NCBI GenBank assembly: GCA_026396615.1
Contig: JAPLWK010000008.1
Coordinates: 9,096-73,095, forward strand
Length of the DNA stretch: 64,000 nucleotides
Direction: 5' to 3'
From: a candidate division WWE3 bacterium
GTDB lineage: Bacteria; Patescibacteriota; WWE3; JAPLWK01
The position numbers were made by a program, and so were the translations under genes. The notes under the pieces were generated by a model, which saw only the letters and a list, made by a program, of their open reading frames with translations, did not search any database and was not told where the DNA came from. How positions within the stretch are numbered: the stretch's first letter is position 1; each line of letters starts with the position of its first letter. Of this stretch, positions 1 through 49,299 are shown piece after piece.

Positions 1-610
<610 letters not shown>

Positions 611-2707: not shown

Positions 2708-3727
2708 ATGAACATCGCCTTCGTTTACAACGTCCGCCACCTTAAGCCGGCCTTAAATGACCCCAAAGCTCAGGCCGAAGCCGAATACGATACCCCGGAA
2801 ACGATTGCCTGGATGAAAGAGTCACTAGAAAAATTAGGGCATACGGTGCACGAGGTAGAGGCTACAACTGCAACGTATGAGAAGCTTAGGGCCCTTAAAA
2901 AGTCCTACTCTGACCTACTAGTCTTTAATTATTCGGAGGGAATCGGAGGTAATGACCATGAAGCCCAAATCTCGGCAATTTGCGAAATTCTTGACCTCAC
3001 TTACACCGGCAGTAGCGTTTTAACCTCGGCGATTATCCTCAACAAAGCCCGCACCAAAGAGATTCTAAAAAATTACCACATTCCCACCCCGGAATGGATT
3101 ATTATTAACCCTATCTCCCTTATCACCCCTATCGCCCTTAGCTACCCACTTATCGTAAAACCGAATTCGGAAGGCAGCAGTAAAGGGATATTTAATAATA
3201 ACGTGGTAAATAATCTAGAAGAATTAACAAACGTAGTTACCAAGATCCGTGACGGTCTACAAGGCTCCGTACTTCTGGAAACCTATTTGCCCGGCCGCGA
3301 ATTCACCGTCGCTATGCTGCGTGATCAAGATGCCTGGCGAGTGCTCCCAATTATCGAAGTTAAGTTCGATGAGCTTCCCGATGGCATGTATCCCATTGAT
3401 TCCTATGAAGTTAAGTGGATCTACGACAGCCCCGAAAACAAAATCGAGCCCCTAGAGTGCCCAGCGAAAATTGACGATAAATTACGACAGAGAATCAAAG
3501 ATATCTGTATTCGGACTTGTGAGGCATTAGAGGTGCGCGATTACTGCCGCATTGACGTTCGTCTGGATGCTAACGACAATCCCTACGTACTAGAAGTTAA
3601 TTCACCACCGGGAATGGCTCCCAACCCCGCCGAGAACTCTCGCTTCCCGTATGCTGCTAGGAAAGCTGGAATGACGTATGAAGAGTTGCTGGACAAAATC
3701 ATTCAATCTGCCCTTAGGCGACGTTAA
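2708..3727 (+). CDS. ATP-grasp enzyme, D-alanine--D-alanine ligase-like
   Basis: C-terminal ATP-grasp signature (CRIDVRLDANDNPYVLEVNSPPGM); paralog of 42487..43635. Confidence 0.65.
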   Translation: MNIAFVYNVRHLKPALNDPKAQAEAEYDTPETIAWMKESLEKLGHTVHEVEATTATYEKLRALKKSYSDLLVFNYSEGIGGNDHEAQISAICEILDLTYTGSSVLTSAIILNKARTKEILKNYHIPTPEWIIINPISLITPIALSYPLIVKPNSEGSSKGIFNNNVVNNLEELTNVVTKIRDGLQGSVLLETYLPGREFTVAMLRDQDAWRVLPIIEVKFDELPDGMYPIDSYEVKWIYDSPENKIEPLECPAKIDDKLRQRIKDICIRTCEALEVRDYCRIDVRLDANDNPYVLEVNSPPGMAPNPAENSRFPYAARKAGMTYEELLDKIIQSALRRR

Positions 3728-3732
3728 TCGCC

Positions 3733-3830
3733 ATCGAGGACGGGGCATGCCCCGTCCCTACAGCCGTGTTTCAGGAGGCCTCCTTAAGATCATGTAGGGA
3801 CGACGCATGCGTCGTCCTCATTCGATTATT
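3733..3830. repeat. Structured repeat of about 95 bp with three GC-rich palindromic hairpins (copy A)
   Basis: GGACGGGGCATGCCCCGTCC, AGGAGGCCTCCT and GGGACGACGCATGCGTCGTCC, enclosed by CCCTACA...TGTAGGG. A second copy lies at 24749..24835 and shows a compensatory C-G to T-G change in hairpin 3. Confidence 0.8.
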
Positions 3831-24748: not shown

Positions 24749-24835
24749 ATCGAGGACGGGGCATGCCCCGTCCCTACACGTATCTGCAGGAGGCCTCCTT
24801 TAGATCTGTAGGGACGACTCATGGGTCGTCCTCAA
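24749..24835. repeat. Structured triple-hairpin repeat (copy B)
   Basis: GGACGGGGCATGCCCCGTCC, AGGAGGCCTCCT and GGGACGACTCATGGGTCGTCC within CCCTACA...TGTAGGG; matches 3733..3830. Confidence 0.8.
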
Positions 24836-25321
24836 ACCAACATTCGAAATAATTCGTATTAATTCGAATCAATTCGCATGATTCATATAAAGTCTTAAAG
24901 GTGGAAAGAACTATATGCCTTACGGGCATTACTCGGCAGTTTAAGCTGACTGCAAAACTGGTCGATCTAGCTGCGTGAGCAAATCTAGATTAAATTCACT
25001 TAAGCGCAACGACTAATACTCTTAAGTGCGAATCTCGGCTAAGGATTGAGCCTATATTCTAGCTAGTCCGTAATCAAAATGATCGCGCGACTTCTCAATC
25101 GTCTCGAAATTCTAAATACTCCCTAGAAAGGAGGTGATCCAGCCCCAGATTCCCCTAGGGCTACCTTGTTACGACTTAAGCCTGATCGCTAGACATAACC
25201 TCCCCCGATAAATCGGGGTTCAGATATCCCTAACTTTCCTGCCTTGACGGGCGGAACCGGGTACTTAGAAGTTTGTCCCGTCCCCACTCCGGCGAGCGGA
25301 TTTCCCGCACCGGGCGAGTCC

Positions 25322-25735
25322 CTATGCTTTTAATGATCTAACTTCTTGTAGTCCTTCGTTGGTTAAGTGCTTTTTGTTTTTAATTAATTCTGCGACTTGG
25401 CAGAACTTCTTAAACTCAAAACGCTTCTTTGCTTGTGGTGGGTAACTTTGAAAATATGGAATTATTTTCTCAGAAATATCCTTAAAATTACTTACTTTTA
25501 ACTTTACGTGCGGTCGCCATTTAGCGTAACGCTCATAATTTAAACGGTAAATATTTCCACAACCAAGAGATTGTTTTATTTCCTGTAAAATCGGTTCGTC
25601 ATCTTCCCGCAGTTCAATCTCAAATATGAGACGAACTTCCGGAAATCTGTCTTTATGATTATTAACAGAAATACTAAAACAACCTTCTCCATCAACGAAT
25701 CCAACTACATAGTTTGGATCTAACATAAGGTTCAT
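25322..25735 (-). CDS. LAGLIDADG homing endonuclease (single-motif type) encoded in 16S intron 1
   Basis: Motif VVGFVDGEGCFSISV near the N-terminus; 137 aa; located inside the insertion near E. coli position 1397. Confidence 0.8.
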   Translation of the reverse strand: MNLMLDPNYVVGFVDGEGCFSISVNNHKDRFPEVRLIFEIELREDDEPILQEIKQSLGCGNIYRLNYERYAKWRPHVKLKVSNFKDISEKIIPYFQSYPPQAKKRFEFKKFCQVAELIKNKKHLTNEGLQEVRSLKA

Positions 25736-26730
25736 CCCTTCATCTCCAGACTACCAAATAAAATACGAAGTAGCAAGAGATTACTATGGACTCAGCTGAC
25801 TTCTCGTAAAGCAATTGCTTCAATCTTTACGAGATCTCTCTGGGTCATTTAGAAAACTGTTCCAGGCATCCGAACGAGAGTCACTTCCTCATGACACACC
25901 ATGAGTCGATTTGACTATCCCTGTCAACGGGATTTCGGCTGCCTTTTGCCTCAGGCCCTCCAGACCAGCGCCTCGCGGCTCTGGACCTGCCATGTTATTT
26001 TCTTGACTACCACATTCAGTTTTCATGAACGTGGGATGGATTTTAACCATCTAGTTTTCTAAACTGCCAGACGCGCAATTAAATTTTTGTGTGCAAGACC
26101 CGAGAACGTATTCACCGCAGTATAGCTGACCTGCGATTACTAGCAACTCCAGCTTCATGAGGGCGAGTTGCAGCCCTCAATCCGAACTAAGGTCCACTTT
26201 TGTGGGATTTGCTCCACCTTACGATTTCGCTTCCCTTTGTAGTGGCCATTGTGGCATGTTTCTAGCCCCAGGCATAAGGGCAATACCGACTTGACGTCAT
26301 CCCCGCCTTCCTCCCTCTTGCGAGGGCAGTTCCACTAGAGTGATACAACTAGTAGTAGGGGTTGCGCTCGTTGACCCACTGAAGGGTACGTCTCACGATA
26401 CGAGCTGACGACAGCCATGCAACACCTGTGATAGCCTTCTTGCGAATTTCCCGCGTTTCTGCGGAATAGGACGCTATCATGTCAAACCTGGGTAAGGTTC
26501 TTCGGTTATCATCGAATTAAAGAACATGCTTCGCTGCTTGTGCGGGTCCCCGCCAATTCCTTTGAGTTTTAAGCTTGCGCTCGTACTTCCCAGGCGGTCG
26601 ACTTAACGCGTTAGCTTCGACGAACAATCCACCTTGCGGCGGGCCATCCATCCAGTCGACATAGTTTACGGCGTGGACTACACGGGTCATCGTGTATTTT
26701 AGCTCCTATTACTAGGAGGATCGGACTATA

Positions 26731-27474
26731 TCATTCACTGAAATGTTTGTGACGACTTTGCTTATCTTTAAGATAAAATCGCACCACTTCTTCCGAAAAA
26801 CCGGAAGACGTAATCACTTCAGAGATCCAGCGTTGCTGAAGAATTGAATCTTTGTATAGAAGCAATACTTTAGGCAACATTTGAGGAACTGGTACATAAG
26901 GAATTATGAGCCTTAAGAATTTTTTTAGTTCTTCTACAGAACTTAAATAAACTCTGCTATAGACCTTATTAACCAACGGGCGATGGACAAATCCAACGCT
27001 CGTGTTAATACCCCAAACGATTTTAAAATATCTTTTAATAATTTCGGCTTCTTTTAAGGAATAGCCATCTGTACAAAAAACCCCTTTGCGTTCCCCAATG
27101 ATAGAACCATCATCAAACCACCAGATTGCCAGAGCAAGTGGGGTTAATTTGTTCAACCATCTTCGGGAAACAAGCTTTTTTTGCCTTTTTGTAACCAAGT
27201 TATAATAACCGGTTAAAACTGGCAAAGCTAAGCTTTGATAACGCAACTTAGGATTCTTACTGTAACCATCAGCTGGTTGCTCCCAACAACAAGAGTCGCT
27301 TGATATTTCCTTAAGTTTAGACATTTTCCACCAAAAATATTCTTTCTGGTTTATTGAATGCCTAAAGGATAATCTCGCGTTTTTGTAATTAGGATTTACA
27401 GCTATTGAGGCATCTCCTAAAAGAGAACCTAAAACCACTGCTTCACATTCTTTTGACAAAGGTGTTAGCTTCAT
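26731..27474 (-). CDS. LAGLIDADG homing endonuclease (double-motif type) encoded in 16S intron 2
   Basis: Motifs VVLGSLLGDASIAV and LAIWWFDDGS; inside the insertion at the 785-806 region. Confidence 0.8.
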   Translation of the reverse strand: MKLTPLSKECEAVVLGSLLGDASIAVNPNYKNARLSFRHSINQKEYFWWKMSKLKEISSDSCCWEQPADGYSKNPKLRYQSLALPVLTGYYNLVTKRQKKLVSRRWLNKLTPLALAIWWFDDGSIIGERKGVFCTDGYSLKEAEIIKRYFKIVWGINTSVGFVHRPLVNKVYSRVYLSSVEELKKFLRLIIPYVPVPQMLPKVLLLYKDSILQQRWISEVITSSGFSEEVVRFYLKDKQSRHKHFSE

Positions 27475-28486
27475 TAAGCTATTTTACACCAACTGTCGTC
27501 AATTCTTCATAGTCTCTACGGGAGTCGCCTTAGGCGACCTTCCCTCGGGATTGACCTAAAATAAATTTAGGGTTTCCCCGATACAGCTGAATGCTCATCT
27601 CGATATCGCTATCGAGAGGGACACCATTCCCCCGATAAAATCGGGGACGGACTATCTAATCCGTTTTGCTCCCCACGCTTTCGTATCTCAGCGTCAGAAA
27701 ATTCCCAGGTAGCTGCCTACGCCTTTGGTGTTCCAAGTGCTCTCAACGCATTTCACTGCTACTGCACTTGTTCCGCTACCCCCTAAATATCTCTAGTCTA
27801 GAAGTATCACAAGCAGTTCCAAGGTTGAGCCTTGGGATTTCACCTGTGACTATCTAAACCGCCTACATAACTCTTTACGCCCAATAAATCCGGATAATGC
27901 TTGGATCCTACGTATGACCGCTGCTGCTGGCACGTAGTTAGCCGATCCTTCTTAACGTCGGTTTACGACCCGAAGGCCTTCATCCCGCACGCGGCGTCGC
28001 TGGGTCAGACTTTCGTCCATTGCCCAAAATTCCCGATTGCTGCCATCCGTAGATGTGGGGGCCGTGTCGCAGTCCCCCTCTGGCTGGTCATCCTCGTGAG
28101 ACCAGCTACCCGTCATAGACTTGGTGGGCCTTTACCCCGCCAACTATCTGATAGGCCGCAGGCTCATCCTAAAGCGGCTTGCGCCTTTACTCTTAACTTT
28201 TTACAGTCAGAGACTATTGGGTATTACCTAATCTTTCGACTAGCTATTCCCATCTTTAGGGTAGATTCCTACGTGTTACTCAGCCGTCTGCCGCTACTTA
28301 AACCCTTGCGGGTCTAAATCGCTCGACTTGCATACCTTAGGCACGCCGCCAGCATTTATCCTGAACCAGGATCAAATTCTCAAAAAAAATTCTTTCCACC
28401 TTTAAAACTTTACTTTATCAATGTGATGTCACTTCAATCACGATTTAGTGACACCTATTTGGTTATCAAGGTGCATACCCTTACTT

Positions 28487-28520
28487 GTCATTCCGGGCTT
28501 GACCCGGAATCCAGTAAACC
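28487..28520. repeat. Solo hairpin repeat copy within the 16S upstream/leader region
   Basis: GTCATTCCGGGCTTGACCCGGAATCCAGTAAACC. Confidence 0.85.
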
Positions 28521-31186: not shown

Positions 31187-32320
31187 TTATTTAAAAGTAA
31201 TAACTCCCCCGCCAATTAATTCTTCGCGAAAATAAAAAACAGCACTTTGCCCCGCCGCTACGCCAAAAAAAGGCGTTTCTAAAGTAACTTCAATAATCCC
31301 CCCAATTTTCCGAATCTCCCCAACCTTAACAAACTCCCCTAAATGACGGATCCTCACTTTTAGATCTTTAATTTCTAAAGGATCTTTTAAGAAATTAAAA
31401 TCCTGGACCGATAAAATAGATATAGAAGCATCTTCTCGACTACCAACTACAAGTCTATTAGCGGCCACATTCTTGCTAATAACATACTGTTGTTGGCTAT
31501 TCGCTGTCTTGTTATTTGTTATAAAGCCATGGCGCTGCCCGATTGTGTACAAAGGTAACCCAATGTGACTGCCTATTACTGCTCCAGTAGTATTTACTAC
31601 CTCTCCTGGTTGTAACTTAGCGCCCGATAAATGCTTCTGTAGAAAGCTTTTAGTATCGTCATCGGGAATAAAGCACACGTCGTAACTTTCCGCAGCGTCT
31701 TTCATTGGCAATGACGATGCAGATGCCACCTTACGTACCTCTGGTTTGTTCATTTCTCCTAAAGGGAATATTAGTGACGATATCTGATCCTGTTTTAAAG
31801 TCCATAAAAAGTAGCTTTGATCTTTCTTCTTATCGGTTGCCATAAACAAACGGGGAATTGATTCCCCACGATCCGATTGTAGGGTTGACCCTATGTGGTC
31901 AACCTCAATCCGATCGACCCCCACATTCTGTATTTTGGCATAGTGCCCTGTAGCCAAATAATCAAACCCCTGCTCTTTTGACCACTCTAAAAGCCGCCCA
32001 ATTTTAAGGTACTCGTTACACCTAATACAAGGATTAGGCGTTAAACCAGCCTCGTAATCCGCAATAAAACGGTTAAACACTAATTCCTTAAAATCAGCCG
32101 AGTAATCCAGCACGGTTAGGGGGATATCTAGATGCCGGCAAAGCGCTACCACCTTCTTAAATGAGGATAAATCACAGCATTTATTGTAGTTTTGGTCCGA
32201 TAGTTTAAGGTGAACGCCATGCACCTCGTACCCTTGATCCTTTAATAGTAAGGCAGCCACCCCACTGTCAACACCACCGGACAGAGCAACGACAACTTTT
32301 TGACGCTTTTCTAAACTCAT
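31187..32320 (-). CDS. mnmA: tRNA-specific 2-thiouridylase MnmA
   Basis: PP-loop SGGVDSGVAALLL; MnmA catalytic-Cys region. Start taken at MSLEKRQKVVVALSGG. Confidence 0.8.
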   Translation of the reverse strand: MSLEKRQKVVVALSGGVDSGVAALLLKDQGYEVHGVHLKLSDQNYNKCCDLSSFKKVVALCRHLDIPLTVLDYSADFKELVFNRFIADYEAGLTPNPCIRCNEYLKIGRLLEWSKEQGFDYLATGHYAKIQNVGVDRIEVDHIGSTLQSDRGESIPRLFMATDKKKDQSYFLWTLKQDQISSLIFPLGEMNKPEVRKVASASSLPMKDAAESYDVCFIPDDDTKSFLQKHLSGAKLQPGEVVNTTGAVIGSHIGLPLYTIGQRHGFITNNKTANSQQQYVISKNVAANRLVVGSREDASISILSVQDFNFLKDPLEIKDLKVRIRHLGEFVKVGEIRKIGGIIEVTLETPFFGVAAGQSAVFYFREELIGGGVITFK

Positions 32321-32488
32321 AAGTGGACATTTTAAAGCAATAAACCAAACAAGACCATACGTAGGGGCTTGATTTATCAAGCCCTCAATCCAATCGATCG
32401 AGGGCGGCATAAATGCCGCCCCTACGTTATTATTCGAGCACATTCGGAAACCATTAACAATTCCCGCAGAATACCGTATACTATTTAT

Positions 32489-33050: not shown

Positions 33051-34127
33051 ATGTACGAGCCTAAATATATTATCTCACCAAAGCTTTTAAACGTCATTGG
33101 CAAAATCGAAGCGGCTAAAGAAGTTATTGAAAACGCTCCGTTAGTGCCCCAGTGGGAACGCCAGTTCATGAATGATGCTGAGGCTCGGACCGTCCATTTT
33201 TCGACGCATATTGAGGGCAATGCCTTAGAGTTTAGTGAAGTTAAGAAAGTGTTAACCGGCCGCGGTGAAGAAGTGGTGGCCAGAGAGCGTGACCTCCAGG
33301 AGATTCTTAACTACCGCGAAGTAGTTAAATACATCGAAAAAATGTCAACACCTACCCAACCTATCGTACCTATAATACCTATGGTACCTACCAACCCAAC
33401 TATAACTGAAAGCACTATCCGCGAGCTACACCGTTTAATTACGAACCGCATTCTTTCTCCAGAGAAACAAGGAAAATATCGCACCCAGATTGCCAGTATT
33501 CGCAATTCAATTACCGGCGAAGTCAGCTTTGTGGCCCCGGAAGCACCACAGATAAATATTTTAATGACCGACCTTACCACTTGGCTGACGACCGAAGCCA
33601 AGGACGTCCATCCCGTACTAAAAGCCGGCATGGTGCACTACGAACTGGTGCGGATTCATCCGTTTGAAGATGGGAATGGCCGCACAGCTCGGGCTCTGGC
33701 GACCTTGTCACTTTATCTGGATGGCTATAATATCCGCCGGTTTTTTAGTTTAGATGAGCATTACGACCAAGACGCCGCCGCTTATTATTCAGCTTTACAA
33801 GCGGCCAACAAAGGGGAACTCACAACCTGGCTGGAATATTTTAGTGAAGGACTGGCGATAGAACTTAACCGCGTTAAAGAGCGCGTCTTAAAACTTAGTC
33901 ATGATAGTAAGCTGCGGAAGACGGTTGGCCAAATTGCTTTGTCGGAGCGCCAAGAACGGGTCATTGAGCAATTGCAAGACGTCGGCTACGTCCAAAATAA
34001 AGATTTTAAGAATATCTTCCCCGGCATCAGTGAGGACACGGTCTTAAGAGAGTTAAAAGACCTCGTTATTAAAGGCCTGATCTTTAAAAAAGGTAGTACC
34101 AAAGGGGCAAGATATGTACTTCGGTAG
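33051..34127 (+). CDS. Fic/Doc family protein (Fido domain plus C-terminal winged-helix)
   Basis: Fic motif HPFEDGNGRTARA. Confidence 0.85.
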   Translation: MYEPKYIISPKLLNVIGKIEAAKEVIENAPLVPQWERQFMNDAEARTVHFSTHIEGNALEFSEVKKVLTGRGEEVVARERDLQEILNYREVVKYIEKMSTPTQPIVPIIPMVPTNPTITESTIRELHRLITNRILSPEKQGKYRTQIASIRNSITGEVSFVAPEAPQINILMTDLTTWLTTEAKDVHPVLKAGMVHYELVRIHPFEDGNGRTARALATLSLYLDGYNIRRFFSLDEHYDQDAAAYYSALQAANKGELTTWLEYFSEGLAIELNRVKERVLKLSHDSKLRKTVGQIALSERQERVIEQLQDVGYVQNKDFKNIFPGISEDTVLRELKDLVIKGLIFKKGSTKGARYVLR

Positions 34128-34219: not shown

Positions 34220-36034
34220 ATGGCAAATGAATCCAATATGACTTTCTCTAAACTCACAGAATATTTTCAAAAACTGGAATCTACCCCAAAGCGCTTGGAG
34301 ATTACTTCGATCCTTGCGGAGCTCATCAACGAAGCAGATGCGACTGAAGTCGACAAGATTCTCTATTTGACCGAGGGACGGCTCGGACCTCTTTTTGACA
34401 ATGAGGACTTTAACCTCGGCGATAAAATGATCCAACGAGTCCTAAGTACTGCCTACAACAAAGCAACTGAAGAAATAACCAAGCAACTAAACACTGCCGG
34501 TGACCTTGGTGACGTCGCTGAAAAACTATCAAACTTATCGCCCTTACCTCCCGCATCTCCCTTAACCGTAATCGAGGTATTCGATCAACTAACTACTATT
34601 GCTTACGCAAGTGGCACTAACTCTCAGGATCGTAAAGTACAATCACTTGCTTCTCTACTAAGAATCAGTGCCCCGGTGGCAGCTAAATATTTAGTTAGGA
34701 TTCCCTTAGGAAAGTTGCGTTTAGGGTTTTCCGATCTTACTGTTCTTGATGCTCTCTCTTACACCATTACCGGGGACAAAGCCTTAAGAAACCAAATTGA
34801 AGCCACCTACAACATTTATCCGGATATCGGGCAAATAGCCAAAGTGCTAAAAGAATCCGGTACCGATGGCCTTAAAAAAATTAAACTCACCGCGGGAGTC
34901 CCTATTCTACCGGAGCGCTGCTCATTAGTTGAAAGTAGTGTGGAAATGCTAGAACGATCGGAGGTCTGGGCAGTGCAACCCAAGTATGACGGTTTAAGAA
35001 CGCAGATTCACTACGGCGTAAAATCGGCCAACCACGATTCCCTCATTACCTCAATTCCCCTTATCCCCCTTAACACCCAAACCTCCCATATAAAAACCAA
35101 AATCTACTCCCGAGGCCTGGAAGACATTACAGCAACGATGCCGGAAATAGTAGCAGCCGCGGAACAACTAGCTAACGAGTGTCACTTGAGTAGTTTTATT
35201 TTAGACGGTGAGGCCGTTACCGTAGATCCCACTACCGGTAAAATAATGCCATTTAACGATACCGTTACCCGCAAACGGAAGTATGATATTGCCGAAAAAT
35301 CGGCCAGCAATCCTTTGAACATTTTCGTTTTCGATTTACTCTTATTAAATGGAGAGGACTTAACCAACGAACCCTACACCGATCGATACGATCGTTTATC
35401 CAACCTATTACACCTACCCAACATATCAAACTTAACCAACCTGCACTTAACCCCCCAAACTGTTTTAAAAGACGCGGCGGCTATTTCGGCCCTATTCCAA
35501 AAAGACATTAAAGAAGGCTACGAGGGGATTGTGGCCAAAAAACCAAACAGTACCTACCACGCTGGTGCCCGTGATTATTCTTGGGTTAAACTAAAGCGGG
35601 AGGGCGACACCTCAGGCCTAGCCGACACTATCGATTGCGTAGTCATGGGTTACTACGCTGGTGAAGGGAAACGCAACGATTTTGGTATTGGCGCTTTTTT
35701 AGTTGGGGTTTACGATCCTAGCGATGACACCTTTAAGACACTGGCTAAAATCGGCACCGGACTTACTGACGATCGCTGGCGTGAGCTTAAAGCCAAGTGT
35801 GATCAAATAAAAACCACCAAAATGCCCACTCGTTACGTTACCCCCGCTTCCCTATCACCACACGTCTGGGTGACCCCCAGGCTCGTCGTCTCGATCCGAG
35901 CCGATCAAGTTACTAAATCCCCCAGTCACAGCAGCGGCTACTCCTTAAGATTTCCCAGACTTCTCGACTACCGCGAAAAGCTTCCGGAAGACGCCAACTC
36001 TGTAAGCGACATAGAAAAATTGTTTAAAAAATAA
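34220..36034 (+). CDS. ATP-dependent DNA ligase
   Basis: Adenylation motif I KYDGLR (AVQPKYDGLRTQ) and motif V-like EGIVAKK; 604 aa. Confidence 0.8.
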   Translation: MANESNMTFSKLTEYFQKLESTPKRLEITSILAELINEADATEVDKILYLTEGRLGPLFDNEDFNLGDKMIQRVLSTAYNKATEEITKQLNTAGDLGDVAEKLSNLSPLPPASPLTVIEVFDQLTTIAYASGTNSQDRKVQSLASLLRISAPVAAKYLVRIPLGKLRLGFSDLTVLDALSYTITGDKALRNQIEATYNIYPDIGQIAKVLKESGTDGLKKIKLTAGVPILPERCSLVESSVEMLERSEVWAVQPKYDGLRTQIHYGVKSANHDSLITSIPLIPLNTQTSHIKTKIYSRGLEDITATMPEIVAAAEQLANECHLSSFILDGEAVTVDPTTGKIMPFNDTVTRKRKYDIAEKSASNPLNIFVFDLLLLNGEDLTNEPYTDRYDRLSNLLHLPNISNLTNLHLTPQTVLKDAAAISALFQKDIKEGYEGIVAKKPNSTYHAGARDYSWVKLKREGDTSGLADTIDCVVMGYYAGEGKRNDFGIGAFLVGVYDPSDDTFKTLAKIGTGLTDDRWRELKAKCDQIKTTKMPTRYVTPASLSPHVWVTPRLVVSIRADQVTKSPSHSSGYSLRFPRLLDYREKLPEDANSVSDIEKLFKK

Positions 36035-36174
36035 ATCAAAATCTTATTCGTCCTATTCTACCTATCAGACATATCATACCTATATAACCCAACCAAACCC
36101 CCAGCACTAGAAAAAACCCAAAGAACTGCTACACTATTTAGATAAGATTATGTTTGTAAAGGTGGTGATTATTA

Positions 36175-40777: not shown

Positions 40778-40836
40778 GTCATTCCAGGCTTGACCCGGAA
40801 TCCAGTTACTGGATTCTGAATCAAGTTCAGAATGAC
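40778..40836. mobile_element. Minimal element made only of two abutting inverted hairpin repeats (REPIN-like)
   Basis: GTCATTCCAGGCTTGACCCGGAATCCAGTTACTGGATTCTGAATCAAGTTCAGAATGAC. Confidence 0.8.
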
Positions 40837-41528: not shown

Positions 41529-42431
41529 ATGCCCAAAAAAGTTGTGAGAGCAAAAACGAAAATTAAAACAAAAGTTACTAATAAAAAAGCAACTGGCAAG
41601 TATTTTTTTGACCACAAGGCTCCCGATCTTCCCTTCTGGAGTTTCCTGGCCGTCTGCGCCATGGTTTTAGTGGTTTTAGCCGGTACGTTTGCCGTCAGCA
41701 AAAGAACAACGCAGCCTTCACCTATTTTACCTATCATACCTATTCAACATATAAAACCTATCCAAACCACCACCACAATTACCTCCGCCACCGATGCCAC
41801 CCCCATAATAGTAAATAACAAACTCGATATAATTTATAAAAATAGCGTTGGCGGCTACTCGCTGAATAGTTATGACCTAAACCTCAACGTTCTTGACGAG
41901 AACCGCTGGCTGACCAACGGCCAGGTAATTCCCAACCAACAAGCTGCTAAACCGTATTTTTACAATAGCACCTGGTATCTGGCATATATAGGTGGCGATC
42001 GATATTTAAGACTGGGAACCTACGACGAATTATTTAATCGCCAACGCGAAGTAACATTCGTGACCCCGATTCCCGTTAGCAGTAATTACCAGATTTATCT
42101 AACAGCTAACGCAAACGGAACGACGACGCAAGTCGCCACCGCAACCTTCAAACACATTTATACCACCAATAATACGTTAGGCATTTCCGGTGACCGTGCT
42201 CCCGGTGAGCGAATTGCCCGGCGGCGAAACGTGTTTCTCGGAGAGCGTTCCGCTCGGTTACGGGACCTTCAATCTGCTGAAGCATGCCGGGTTTCTCCAG
42301 ATGCCGGGCGGGGCTCCGCTGGAGACGGAGGCGGCCTCCAGCATCGAGCTTCGTGCGCCGCCGAGGTACTCGGTCCTCAGCGCCGTGGTGAGTGGGTCCA
42401 CCACGTTCCGGGAAAGCCTCGTCAGGCGTGA
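41529..42431 (+). CDS. Hypothetical membrane-anchored protein whose 3' end runs into an anomalous GC-rich segment
   Basis: Lys-rich N-terminus plus transmembrane segment. From about 42186 the translation (DRAPGERIARRRNVFLGERSARLRD...) looks like out-of-frame reading of foreign DNA. Confidence 0.4.
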   Translation: MPKKVVRAKTKIKTKVTNKKATGKYFFDHKAPDLPFWSFLAVCAMVLVVLAGTFAVSKRTTQPSPILPIIPIQHIKPIQTTTTITSATDATPIIVNNKLDIIYKNSVGGYSLNSYDLNLNVLDENRWLTNGQVIPNQQAAKPYFYNSTWYLAYIGGDRYLRLGTYDELFNRQREVTFVTPIPVSSNYQIYLTANANGTTTQVATATFKHIYTTNNTLGISGDRAPGERIARRRNVFLGERSARLRDLQSAEACRVSPDAGRGSAGDGGGLQHRASCAAEVLGPQRRGEWVHHVPGKPRQA

Positions 42432-43635: not shown

Positions 43636-43761
43636 CCCGCCTGCCCACCTTTAGCAGGGAATCCAGCCATCCCACTTGTCATTCCGGCCTTGAGCCGGAA
43701 TCCAGTAACAGATTAAACGATTGAATCGATTTACTGGATTCTGAATCAAGTTCAGAATGAC
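43620..43761. mobile_element. Composite MITE: two left-type hairpin repeats plus one right-type repeat
   Basis: GTCATTCCGGGCTTGACCCG[CCTGCCCACCTTTAGCAGGG]AATCCAG...GTCATTCCGGCCTTGAGCCGGAATCCAGTAA...TTTACTGGATTCTGAATCAAGTTCAGAATGAC. Confidence 0.8.
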
Positions 43762-49224: not shown

Positions 49225-49299
49225 GGGTGAGTAGCTTAATGGTAGAGCAGACGTCTTATACACGTCCGGTTCCAGGTTCGAATCCCGGCTCACCCACCA
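49225..49299 (+). tRNA. Candidate tRNA-Ile (anticodon UAU), CCA encoded
   Basis: GGGTGAGTAGCTTAATGGTAGAGCAGACGTCTTATACACGTCCGGTTCCAGGTTCGAATCCCGGCTCACCCACCA; perfect 5-bp anticodon stem GACGT/ACGTC, loop CTTATAC, A51:C63 mismatch in the T-stem. Confidence 0.7.

Follow-up and report, generated by a model that had tools for sequence, protein, structure and literature searches.

A REP is a small repeat that is normally copied by a domesticated transposase (RAYT), and in Proteobacteria REPs and REPINs are viewed as long-lived, vertically inherited partners of this enzyme. To our knowledge, both have been studied almost entirely in that phylum. The survey of GTAG REPs by Di Nocera, De Gregorio and Rocco (2013; PMC3733652) describes 24 families whose members form head-to-head (HH), tail-to-tail (TT) and HT dimers, often heterodimers, with 20–100 bp spacers, some of which contain small stem-loops. 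These REPs adjoin the 3′ ends of convergent or unidirectional genes, have G.T pairs in their stems, include in-frame intragenic copies, and are also found flanking RAYT genes; the host range that it lists covers only Proteobacteria, Cyanobacteria, Chloroflexi and the PVC group (PMC3733652). A REPIN, as defined by Bertels and Rainey (2011), is an inverted REP doublet that folds into one hairpin and replicates as a unit (PMC3116915). According to Corneloup et al., TnpA-REP acts on folded single-stranded REPs and needs the GTAG for cleavage; enzymes from E. coli, S. maltophilia and Marinomonas are known to bind and cleave REPs in this GTAG-dependent manner (PMC8266576). A text search of the literature found no work on REPs in Patescibacteria; the one article in which both words occur is unrelated.

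We analyzed a 64-kb stretch of a WWE3 (CPR) genome (hereafter, the window), whose genes include those for a sortase, a Ddl-like ATP-grasp protein, GtrA and RadA. Its dispersed tRNAs, an rRNA gene containing an intron-like insert and the G+C-rich palindromes might also suggest an organelle genome with mobile GC clusters, but this origin was rejected because the genes look bacterial and CPR-like and the MnmA protein is identical to that of a WWE3 MAG. The initial annotation of this DNA had reported a triple-palindrome element present twice (copies A and B). Both copies lie where it had placed them, with limits refined to 3733–3822 and 24749–24836 (~90 bp each), and the palindrome anatomy was read correctly; both outer hairpins and a central AGGAGGCCTCCT hairpin are common to the two copies. 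The element is, with a probability of about 0.8, a dimer of two GTAG-tagged REPs that are inverted tail-to-tail, with their tags inward and a structured spacer between them, i.e., a REPIN/BIME-like, non-autonomous repeat. In each copy, hairpins 1 and 3 are one unit in two opposite orientations, consisting of GTAG, a GG...CC stem-loop and TC(R)A, which makes the element a REP dimer rather than a dedicated module of three hairpins; the functional unit is YGTAG followed by the GG...CC hairpin and TC(R)A.

A scripted scan for GTAG directly before a hairpin identified seven such units in the window, with five different stems (ACGGGG, ACGACG, TTGACC, GCTTGAT and GCGGCAT), whereas GTAG, the GG..CC stem base and the TC(R)A tail are constant. 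In 200 dinucleotide shuffles of the window, the mean was 0.185 units and the maximum 2, showing that the units are dispersed above chance, at a density of about one GTAG REP per 9 kb. When the scan was relaxed to allow GYRG tags, wobble pairs and one mismatch, only background was found in the window beyond the seven units. A covariance model (R1) trained on 39 units, all from other organisms, recovered exactly the same seven units (E 1e-8 to 0.022) and nothing else in the window below E = 1; the 100% pairing in its training alignment is a consequence of selection and is not counted as evidence. The units and spacers are as follows.

3733–3762, minus strand: copy A left REP unit, TGTAG-GGACGGGGC-at-GCCCCGTCC-TCGAT, GTAG inward (R1 38.4 bits, E 1.2e-8)
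3763–3792, no strand assigned: copy A spacer, 30 nt, with the small stem-loop AGGAGGCCTCCT at 3773–3784
3793–3822, plus strand: copy A right REP unit, TGTAG-GGACGACGC-at-GCGTCGTCC-TCATT (R1 38.6 bits, E 1e-8)
24749–24778, minus strand: copy B left REP unit, same sequence as the copy A left unit (R1 37.4 bits)
24779–24806, no strand assigned: copy B spacer, 28 nt, with AGGAGGCCTCCT at 24788–24799
24807–24836, plus strand: copy B right REP unit, TGTAG-GGACGACtc-at-ggGTCGTCC-TCAAA, with T.G in place of the G-C of copy A (R1 35.4 bits)
31849–31931, plus strand: intragenic REP singleton with palindromic flanks, in frame in mnmA (unit 31879–31904; R1 E 0.022)
32358–32428, no strand assigned: head-to-head REP heterodimer (GTAG outside) just upstream of mnmA (units 32361–32384, plus strand, and 32402–32425, minus strand)

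The two units of the head-to-head dimer have the stems GGGCTTGAT and GGGCGGCAT (R1 E 1.3e-4 and 4e-7, respectively), and the singleton reads GTAG-GGTTGACC-ctatgt-GGTCAACC-TCAAT. The mark of a GTAG REP is a palindromic stem-loop (short loop, stem of ~6–13 bp) with a GTAG-like tetranucleotide left unpaired on one side, and all seven window units have this form, with GTAG standing immediately before a perfect or near-perfect stem of 7–10 bp. As in the GTAG REP superfamily, the unpaired GTAG lies at one end of a G+C-rich stem (here of 7–9 bp) with a short loop, copies are located at 3′ gene ends and occasionally in frame within genes, and stem subfamilies differ by complementary changes; as in its TT heterodimers, two inverted units with different stems lie 20–100 bp apart around a spacer with a small stem-loop. 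In all respects examined, the window element agrees with a TT heterodimer whose spacer is structured. Unlike the hosts listed in the survey, that of the window belongs to WWE3 (CPR), a group absent from this list (PMC3733652). The conserved tetranucleotide 5′ of a palindrome and the alternating orientation are also shared with the E. coli REP/BIME and TnpA-REP system (Ton-Hoang, Messing, Corneloup et al.; PMC3479197, PMC8266576); however, the palindromes of E. coli REPs are bulged and imperfect, whereas the window units are perfect or near-perfect, as in the S. maltophilia group.

Comparison of copies A and B shows what the two dimers share. The window contains exactly two occurrences of the 20-mer GGACGGGGCATGCCCCGTCC of hairpin 1 (0 expected) and two of GGACGACNCATGNGTCGTCC of hairpin 3, and the central palindrome CAGGAGGCCTCCT is present in both copies, as is the spacer segment CAGGAGGCCTCCTT.AGATC. 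When aligned from ATCGAGG to CCTCA, the copies differ only by one base pair of hairpin 3 and by the 5′ part of the spacer. This base pair had been described as a compensatory change: pairing is indeed kept, and copy B has T.G where copy A has G-C, a change at both positions, but the wobble exists only in plus-strand RNA. Likewise, the pairing CCCTACA...TGTAGGG, which had been taken to enclose the element, is present, but it consists of one GTAG tag from each of two inverted units, because the left arm reads TGTAG-GGACGGGGCATGCCCCGTCC-TCGAT on the minus strand and the right arm TGTAG-GGACGACGCATGCGTCGTCC-TCATT on the plus strand.

The near-identity of the arms could point to a recent segmental duplication or an assembly artefact, a reading with practically no probability left: the flanks are unrelated immediately beyond ATCGAGG...CCTCA, so that copies A and B are not a segmental duplication, the window holds further units with other stems, and the unit is found in many independent assemblies. 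Identical flanks and a loss of pairing in additional copies had been named beforehand as findings that would count against the element; the flanks differ, and the hairpins are kept in further units despite their different stems. Because the spacer is shared as well, we infer that both dimers descend from one dimer copied whole.

This behavior would be that of a REPIN. As in REPINs, inverted REPs enclose a spacer and the minimum-free-energy fold of copies A and B, on both strands, is a single long hairpin (-44.6 to -50.5 kcal/mol). Being inverted copies of one unit, hairpins 1 and 3 pair with each other in this fold, the 5′ half of the former with the 3′ half of the latter, and the three separate hairpins represent an alternative to it. 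The doublet may also have been copied as a unit, since two copies in 64 kb share their arms and most of the spacer. It differs from a REPIN in its non-identical arms (a heterodimer). No third copy of the three-hairpin dimer was found in the 64-kb window, in the metagenome scan or among the loci listed from the genome collection (both below).

The genomic setting of the two copies bears on another reading, in which the element is mainly an RNA 3′-end structure that either stops transcription in both directions or stabilizes upstream mRNAs by blocking exonucleases, and is a repeat only secondarily. A Ddl-like ATP-grasp gene and a convergent GtrA-like gene end at 3727 and 3826, respectively, and copy A takes up exactly the 98-nt gap between them, starting 5 nt past one stop codon and ending 3 nt short of the other. 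The initial annotation had placed both copies just downstream of convergent gene ends, which holds for copy A but not for copy B, whose context is unidirectional: it follows the 16S gene and a LAGLIDADG ORF on the minus strand and forms the 3′ end of a unit on that strand. These positions favor an RNA role, as do the strong folding of both copies on both strands (z -4.8 to -6.1 against shuffles), the T.G of copy B, which is a legal RNA wobble on the plus strand, and the statement in the survey that most REPs lie past gene ends and presumably act at the RNA level (PMC3733652). However, an intrinsic terminator is a G+C-rich hairpin followed directly by a T/U run, and neither copy has a T-run after either arm on either strand; a terminator scanner likewise reported no site within either element. 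A separate terminator-like hairpin of canonical form with a T-run (24691–24660) lies about 60 nt beyond copy B on the minus strand, and a strong promoter-like site (24652–24625) follows it. The location at 3′ gene ends, typical of GTAG REPs, applies to copies A and B, whereas the other units are a dimer upstream of mnmA and a singleton within its coding sequence, which speaks against this reading. Furthermore, the stems vary freely, and conservation is highest in the unpaired GTAG, for which a terminator has no use. We therefore regard an RNA 3′-end structure as an improbable, if still serious, account of the element. The bidirectional terminator proposed by the initial annotation may survive as a side effect at copy A, but not as a description of the element, with no T-run on either side and a separate terminator-like site at copy B. 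Under the preferred reading of a REP dimer, the transcribed hairpins may also stabilize or end neighboring mRNAs as a secondary effect.

To place the unit more broadly, we compared it with other genomes. The GTAGGGACG...CGTCC unit is abundant in Anaerolineae, Chloroflexota and Bacteroidales, and is also present in one Gracilibacteria genome. In a genome collection, the GTAGGGACGNNNCATGNNNCGTCCTC pattern matched at least 120 loci, against about one expected by chance (our own estimate from the size of the collection), and the matches listed include many in Ca. Flexifilum breve, others in Anaerolineae and Chloroflexota, Duncaniella and other Bacteroidales, one Gracilibacteria genome and a few others. 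The units listed are mostly inverted pairs with spacers of ~20–100 nt; tags point outward in most of the Chloroflexota and Duncaniella pairs listed and inward in others. A metagenome scan for tags-inward pairs, with just the two inner half-stems imposed by the pattern, yielded 68 loci with tail-to-tail pairs. Heterodimers make up 64 of 66 of these dimers, and the half-stems that the pattern did not impose complete the hairpin in 53/66 and 51/66 dimers, compared to 14/1360 random-flank controls.

Subfamilies with complementary stem changes are thus seen in the five window stems, in the six free inner positions (triplets) of the genome-scan units, which are fully complementary in 120 of the 130 units listed and comprise more than 15 triplet types, and in the metagenome dimers (~80% vs 1% of controls). 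A hairpin within the spacer was found in 12/66 tail-to-tail dimers and in 6/66 after shuffling, so that enrichment is not clear and the central AGGAGGCCTCCT hairpin is a local, non-defining feature.

These comparisons weigh on two further readings. One takes the element for a small structured RNA gene, as the initial annotation had also suggested, or a cis-regulatory RNA with three conserved helices; the strong folding z scores and the paired position that differs on both sides between the copies favor it. Several observations speak against it: both strands fold equally well, neither copy is associated with a promoter-like site, the units are found in either orientation and have stems and spacers that are unrelated, the stems differ freely among copies and genomes, related dimers show no clear enrichment of the central hairpin, and one unit lies inside a coding sequence. 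A scan of the whole window at Rfam gathering thresholds returned only rRNA, tRNA and a group II intron fragment, and no Rfam family matched the element, leaving a dedicated RNA with a very small probability. The other reading treats the palindromes as sites for a sequence-specific DNA protein without a role in transposition (restriction-modification at CATG/GGCC, a nucleoid protein or gyrase), for which one can cite that they are perfect and centered on CATG and GGCC, and that E. coli BIMEs bind IHF, gyrase and Pol I. Yet loops (tt, ctatgt) and stems differ between window units and between genomes, the conserved duplex sequence is limited to GTAG and the GG..CC stem base, and a conserved asymmetric tag is unsuited to a symmetric duplex site; we consider such sites very unlikely.

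Some of the other-genome loci have features of their own. At Anaerolineae and Gracilibacteria loci (L006, L036, L042, L045 and many in Flexifilum), the unit often stands directly 3′ of a terminator-looking hairpin with a T-run, in the arrangement ...CAGGGGTAGGTTTTTAATT-GTAGGG..., and in Flexifilum, unit pairs flank conserved cores of ~85 nt, like miniature inverted-repeat elements.

The association with transposase genes in other genomes was also examined. REPs of the GTAGGGAC stem type directly flank RAYT genes there, as GTAG with a GGAC(G/A) stem base, a likeness to REPIN–RAYT systems. One metagenome locus (L167), retrieved solely through its REP dimer, encodes at 389–871 a protein of 160 aa that matches the REP-associated tyrosine transposase family NCBIfam NF047646 (120 bits vs a cut-off of 80) and Pfam Y1_Tnp (56 bits). 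This gene has GTAGGGACGGGTCT..CC units on both sides, with a GTAGGGACGGGTCT unit ~15 nt upstream of its start and a tags-inward dimer that overlaps its 3′ end. In a second locus (L176), a RAYT-like gene (600–1139) lies behind three tandem tail-to-tail dimers; its NF047646 score of 63 bits is below the cut-off of 80 because of an in-frame pair of its own REPs (873–950) inside the gene, just past the HUH motif. The L176 protein has more than 6,500 relatives, often named RayT by JGI, many of which vary in length (156 to 268 aa). Among its REPs, Duncaniella locus L077 contains a truncated fragment (73 aa) that, taken alone, matched no family in Pfam, NCBIfam or PDB, and that is RAYT-like because of its 39–41% identity to the L176 protein. 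The RAYT-like genes of L176 and L167 were located by tblastn with the fragment from the flank search; a regex scan for HUH/Tyr motifs in the ORFs of the 120 genome-scan loci listed found nothing.

Close relatives of the L167 protein occur in Chloroflexota, Dehalococcoidia and Saganbacteria, and three further loci encoding such relatives (six retrieved places) have GTAG hairpins on both sides at ~20–120 nt. Taken together, the eight RAYT places (L167, L176, L190–L194 and L196) represent five different loci, all of which (5/5) have GTAG hairpins near the gene, and 4/5 have them on both sides within ~120 nt. In contrast to REPIN–RAYT systems, tblastn with two RAYT queries detected no RAYT/Y1 transposase gene in the 64-kb window, which holds two copies of the doublet, and no CPR-named relative was among the best 120 in either RAYT homologue search (L167 and L176 proteins).

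By analogy with the described enzymes, the route by which the window units arose may be outlined. A RAYT/TnpA-REP protein (an HUH Y1 enzyme related to IS200/IS605) would bind the folded single-stranded hairpin, as the E. coli HUH/Y1 enzyme recognizes folded single-stranded DNA, and cleavage would require the GTAG tag. By cutting and rejoining DNA, the enzyme would copy a REP or a whole dimer to new sites, mostly just past gene ends. Such a cognate RAYT would act, or would once have acted, in this WWE3 genome. Of the three proposals in the initial annotation, a protein recognition site came closest, in that RAYTs recognize a GTAG tag with its hairpin as their substrate (PMC8266576), but the annotation missed the REP dimer.

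The mnmA gene (ORF 31187–32443, minus strand) provides a case in which a unit has entered a coding sequence. The REP singleton is inserted in frame, and the window MnmA has about 18 extra residues exactly at this point relative to solved MnmA structures. The closest MnmA homologue (P0002, 73% identical) is without 24 residues at the same position, and alignment with its gene (~70% identical DNA) gives a net insertion of ~72 nt, corresponding to the unit and its palindromic flanks. The absence of the in-frame insert from the nearest relative would point to mobility. In principle, the insert could alternatively be a loop lost in the P0002 relative, whose mnmA is only ~70% identical at the DNA level. 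The contig of this relative has a REP-like pair just upstream of mnmA, in the same place as the window dimer but with different stems, which fits either turnover at a favored site or retention of a structure; a pair kept at the same place could mean retention for function instead of mobility. The case resembles Rickettsia palindromic elements (RPEs) and other intragenic REPs in that a housekeeping gene (mnmA) has gained a short peptide loop from an in-frame palindromic repeat; unlike RPE-1, the window unit is GTAG-tagged and much shorter, with one intragenic case in the window.

The upstream pair also affects the gene call. The deposited MnmA (P0001, 407 aa) begins inside this REP pair (window 32369–32443), and its annotated N-terminus is probably a spurious, REP-encoded mis-call, because homologues begin about 30 residues further in, at MSLEKRQK or its equivalent. 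GTAG units thereby cause mis-called gene starts, as in MnmA, and spurious small ORFs in metagenome-assembled genomes. In two other MnmA homologues, from related metagenome bacteria (P0004 and P0006), REP-like peptides occupy the same variable loop: VGATRGSPEFAGRSRPTP in P0004, present twice with one copy near the C-terminus, and APTRGAPT in P0006. This hints that in-frame palindromic insertions are recurrent in this lineage.

The kind of element is already known, and what is new here is modest, namely, the WWE3 (CPR) host, which extends the host range of GTAG REPs to a candidate-phyla-radiation genome, and the breadth of the stem type across phyla. A single REP/RAYT lineage with GTAG and GGAC(G/A)...(C/T)GTCC may, as a tentative proposal, have spread to or survived in very distant phyla (Chloroflexota, Bacteroidota, CPR, some Proteobacteria and relatives of Saganbacteria) and been kept even in a strongly reduced WWE3 genome of ~1 Mb, possibly without a resident RAYT. 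If so, REPs would shape intergenic regions in that genome and enter housekeeping genes, among them mnmA, in frame, and without a resident RAYT, the WWE3 copies would be orphan REPs or mobilized in trans. The presence in one window of GTAG REPs, a second and denser repeat family (below) and an in-frame mnmA insertion indicates that even streamlined, episymbiont-type genomes tolerate or use such repeats.

The second hairpin repeat family has 19 sites between 2611 and 53319 of the window, with the form GTCATTC-stem-loop-stem-GAATCCAGTAA (e.g., 2611–2638, 28487–28514, 40778–40805 with 40809–40836, and 43678–43705 with 43734–43761). It has at least five stem variants in which pairing is kept (CCGGG/CCCGG, CTGAA/TTCAG, CCGGCC/GGCCGG and others), is often found as facing pairs in intergenic regions, and may be a CGTC-tagged REP type, because its tag reads YGTC. 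Short arrays with a 9-nt period (ACCTATNNN) are located at 33350–33387, 35412–35440, 36060–36088 and 41720–41766; some are inside ORFs, such as the PIVPIIPMVPTNPT stretch of ORF 33051–34127.

Several rRNA, tRNA and intron features of the window were recorded as well. The 16S rRNA gene (26035–28387, minus strand) is 2353 nt long, compared to a model of 1533 positions, and contains a LAGLIDADG_2 homing-endonuclease ORF (26731–27474, minus strand), which suggests an intervening sequence in the gene. A match to group II intron D1-D4 (25735–25822, minus strand, 40 bits) lies just past the 3′ end of the 16S gene and is directly followed by a LAGLIDADG_1 ORF of 137 aa (25322–25735, minus strand). The 5′ end of the 23S gene (1–608, minus strand) is unlinked to the 16S gene and ~25 kb away from it. 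An odd tRNA cluster lies between the 23S start and the downstream genes (773–1775), in which a minus-strand tRNA-Ala is followed by plus-strand tRNA-Ile, tRNA-Ala and tRNA-Gln, and a tRNA-Ile with a TAT anticodon is located at 49225–49299 (plus strand).
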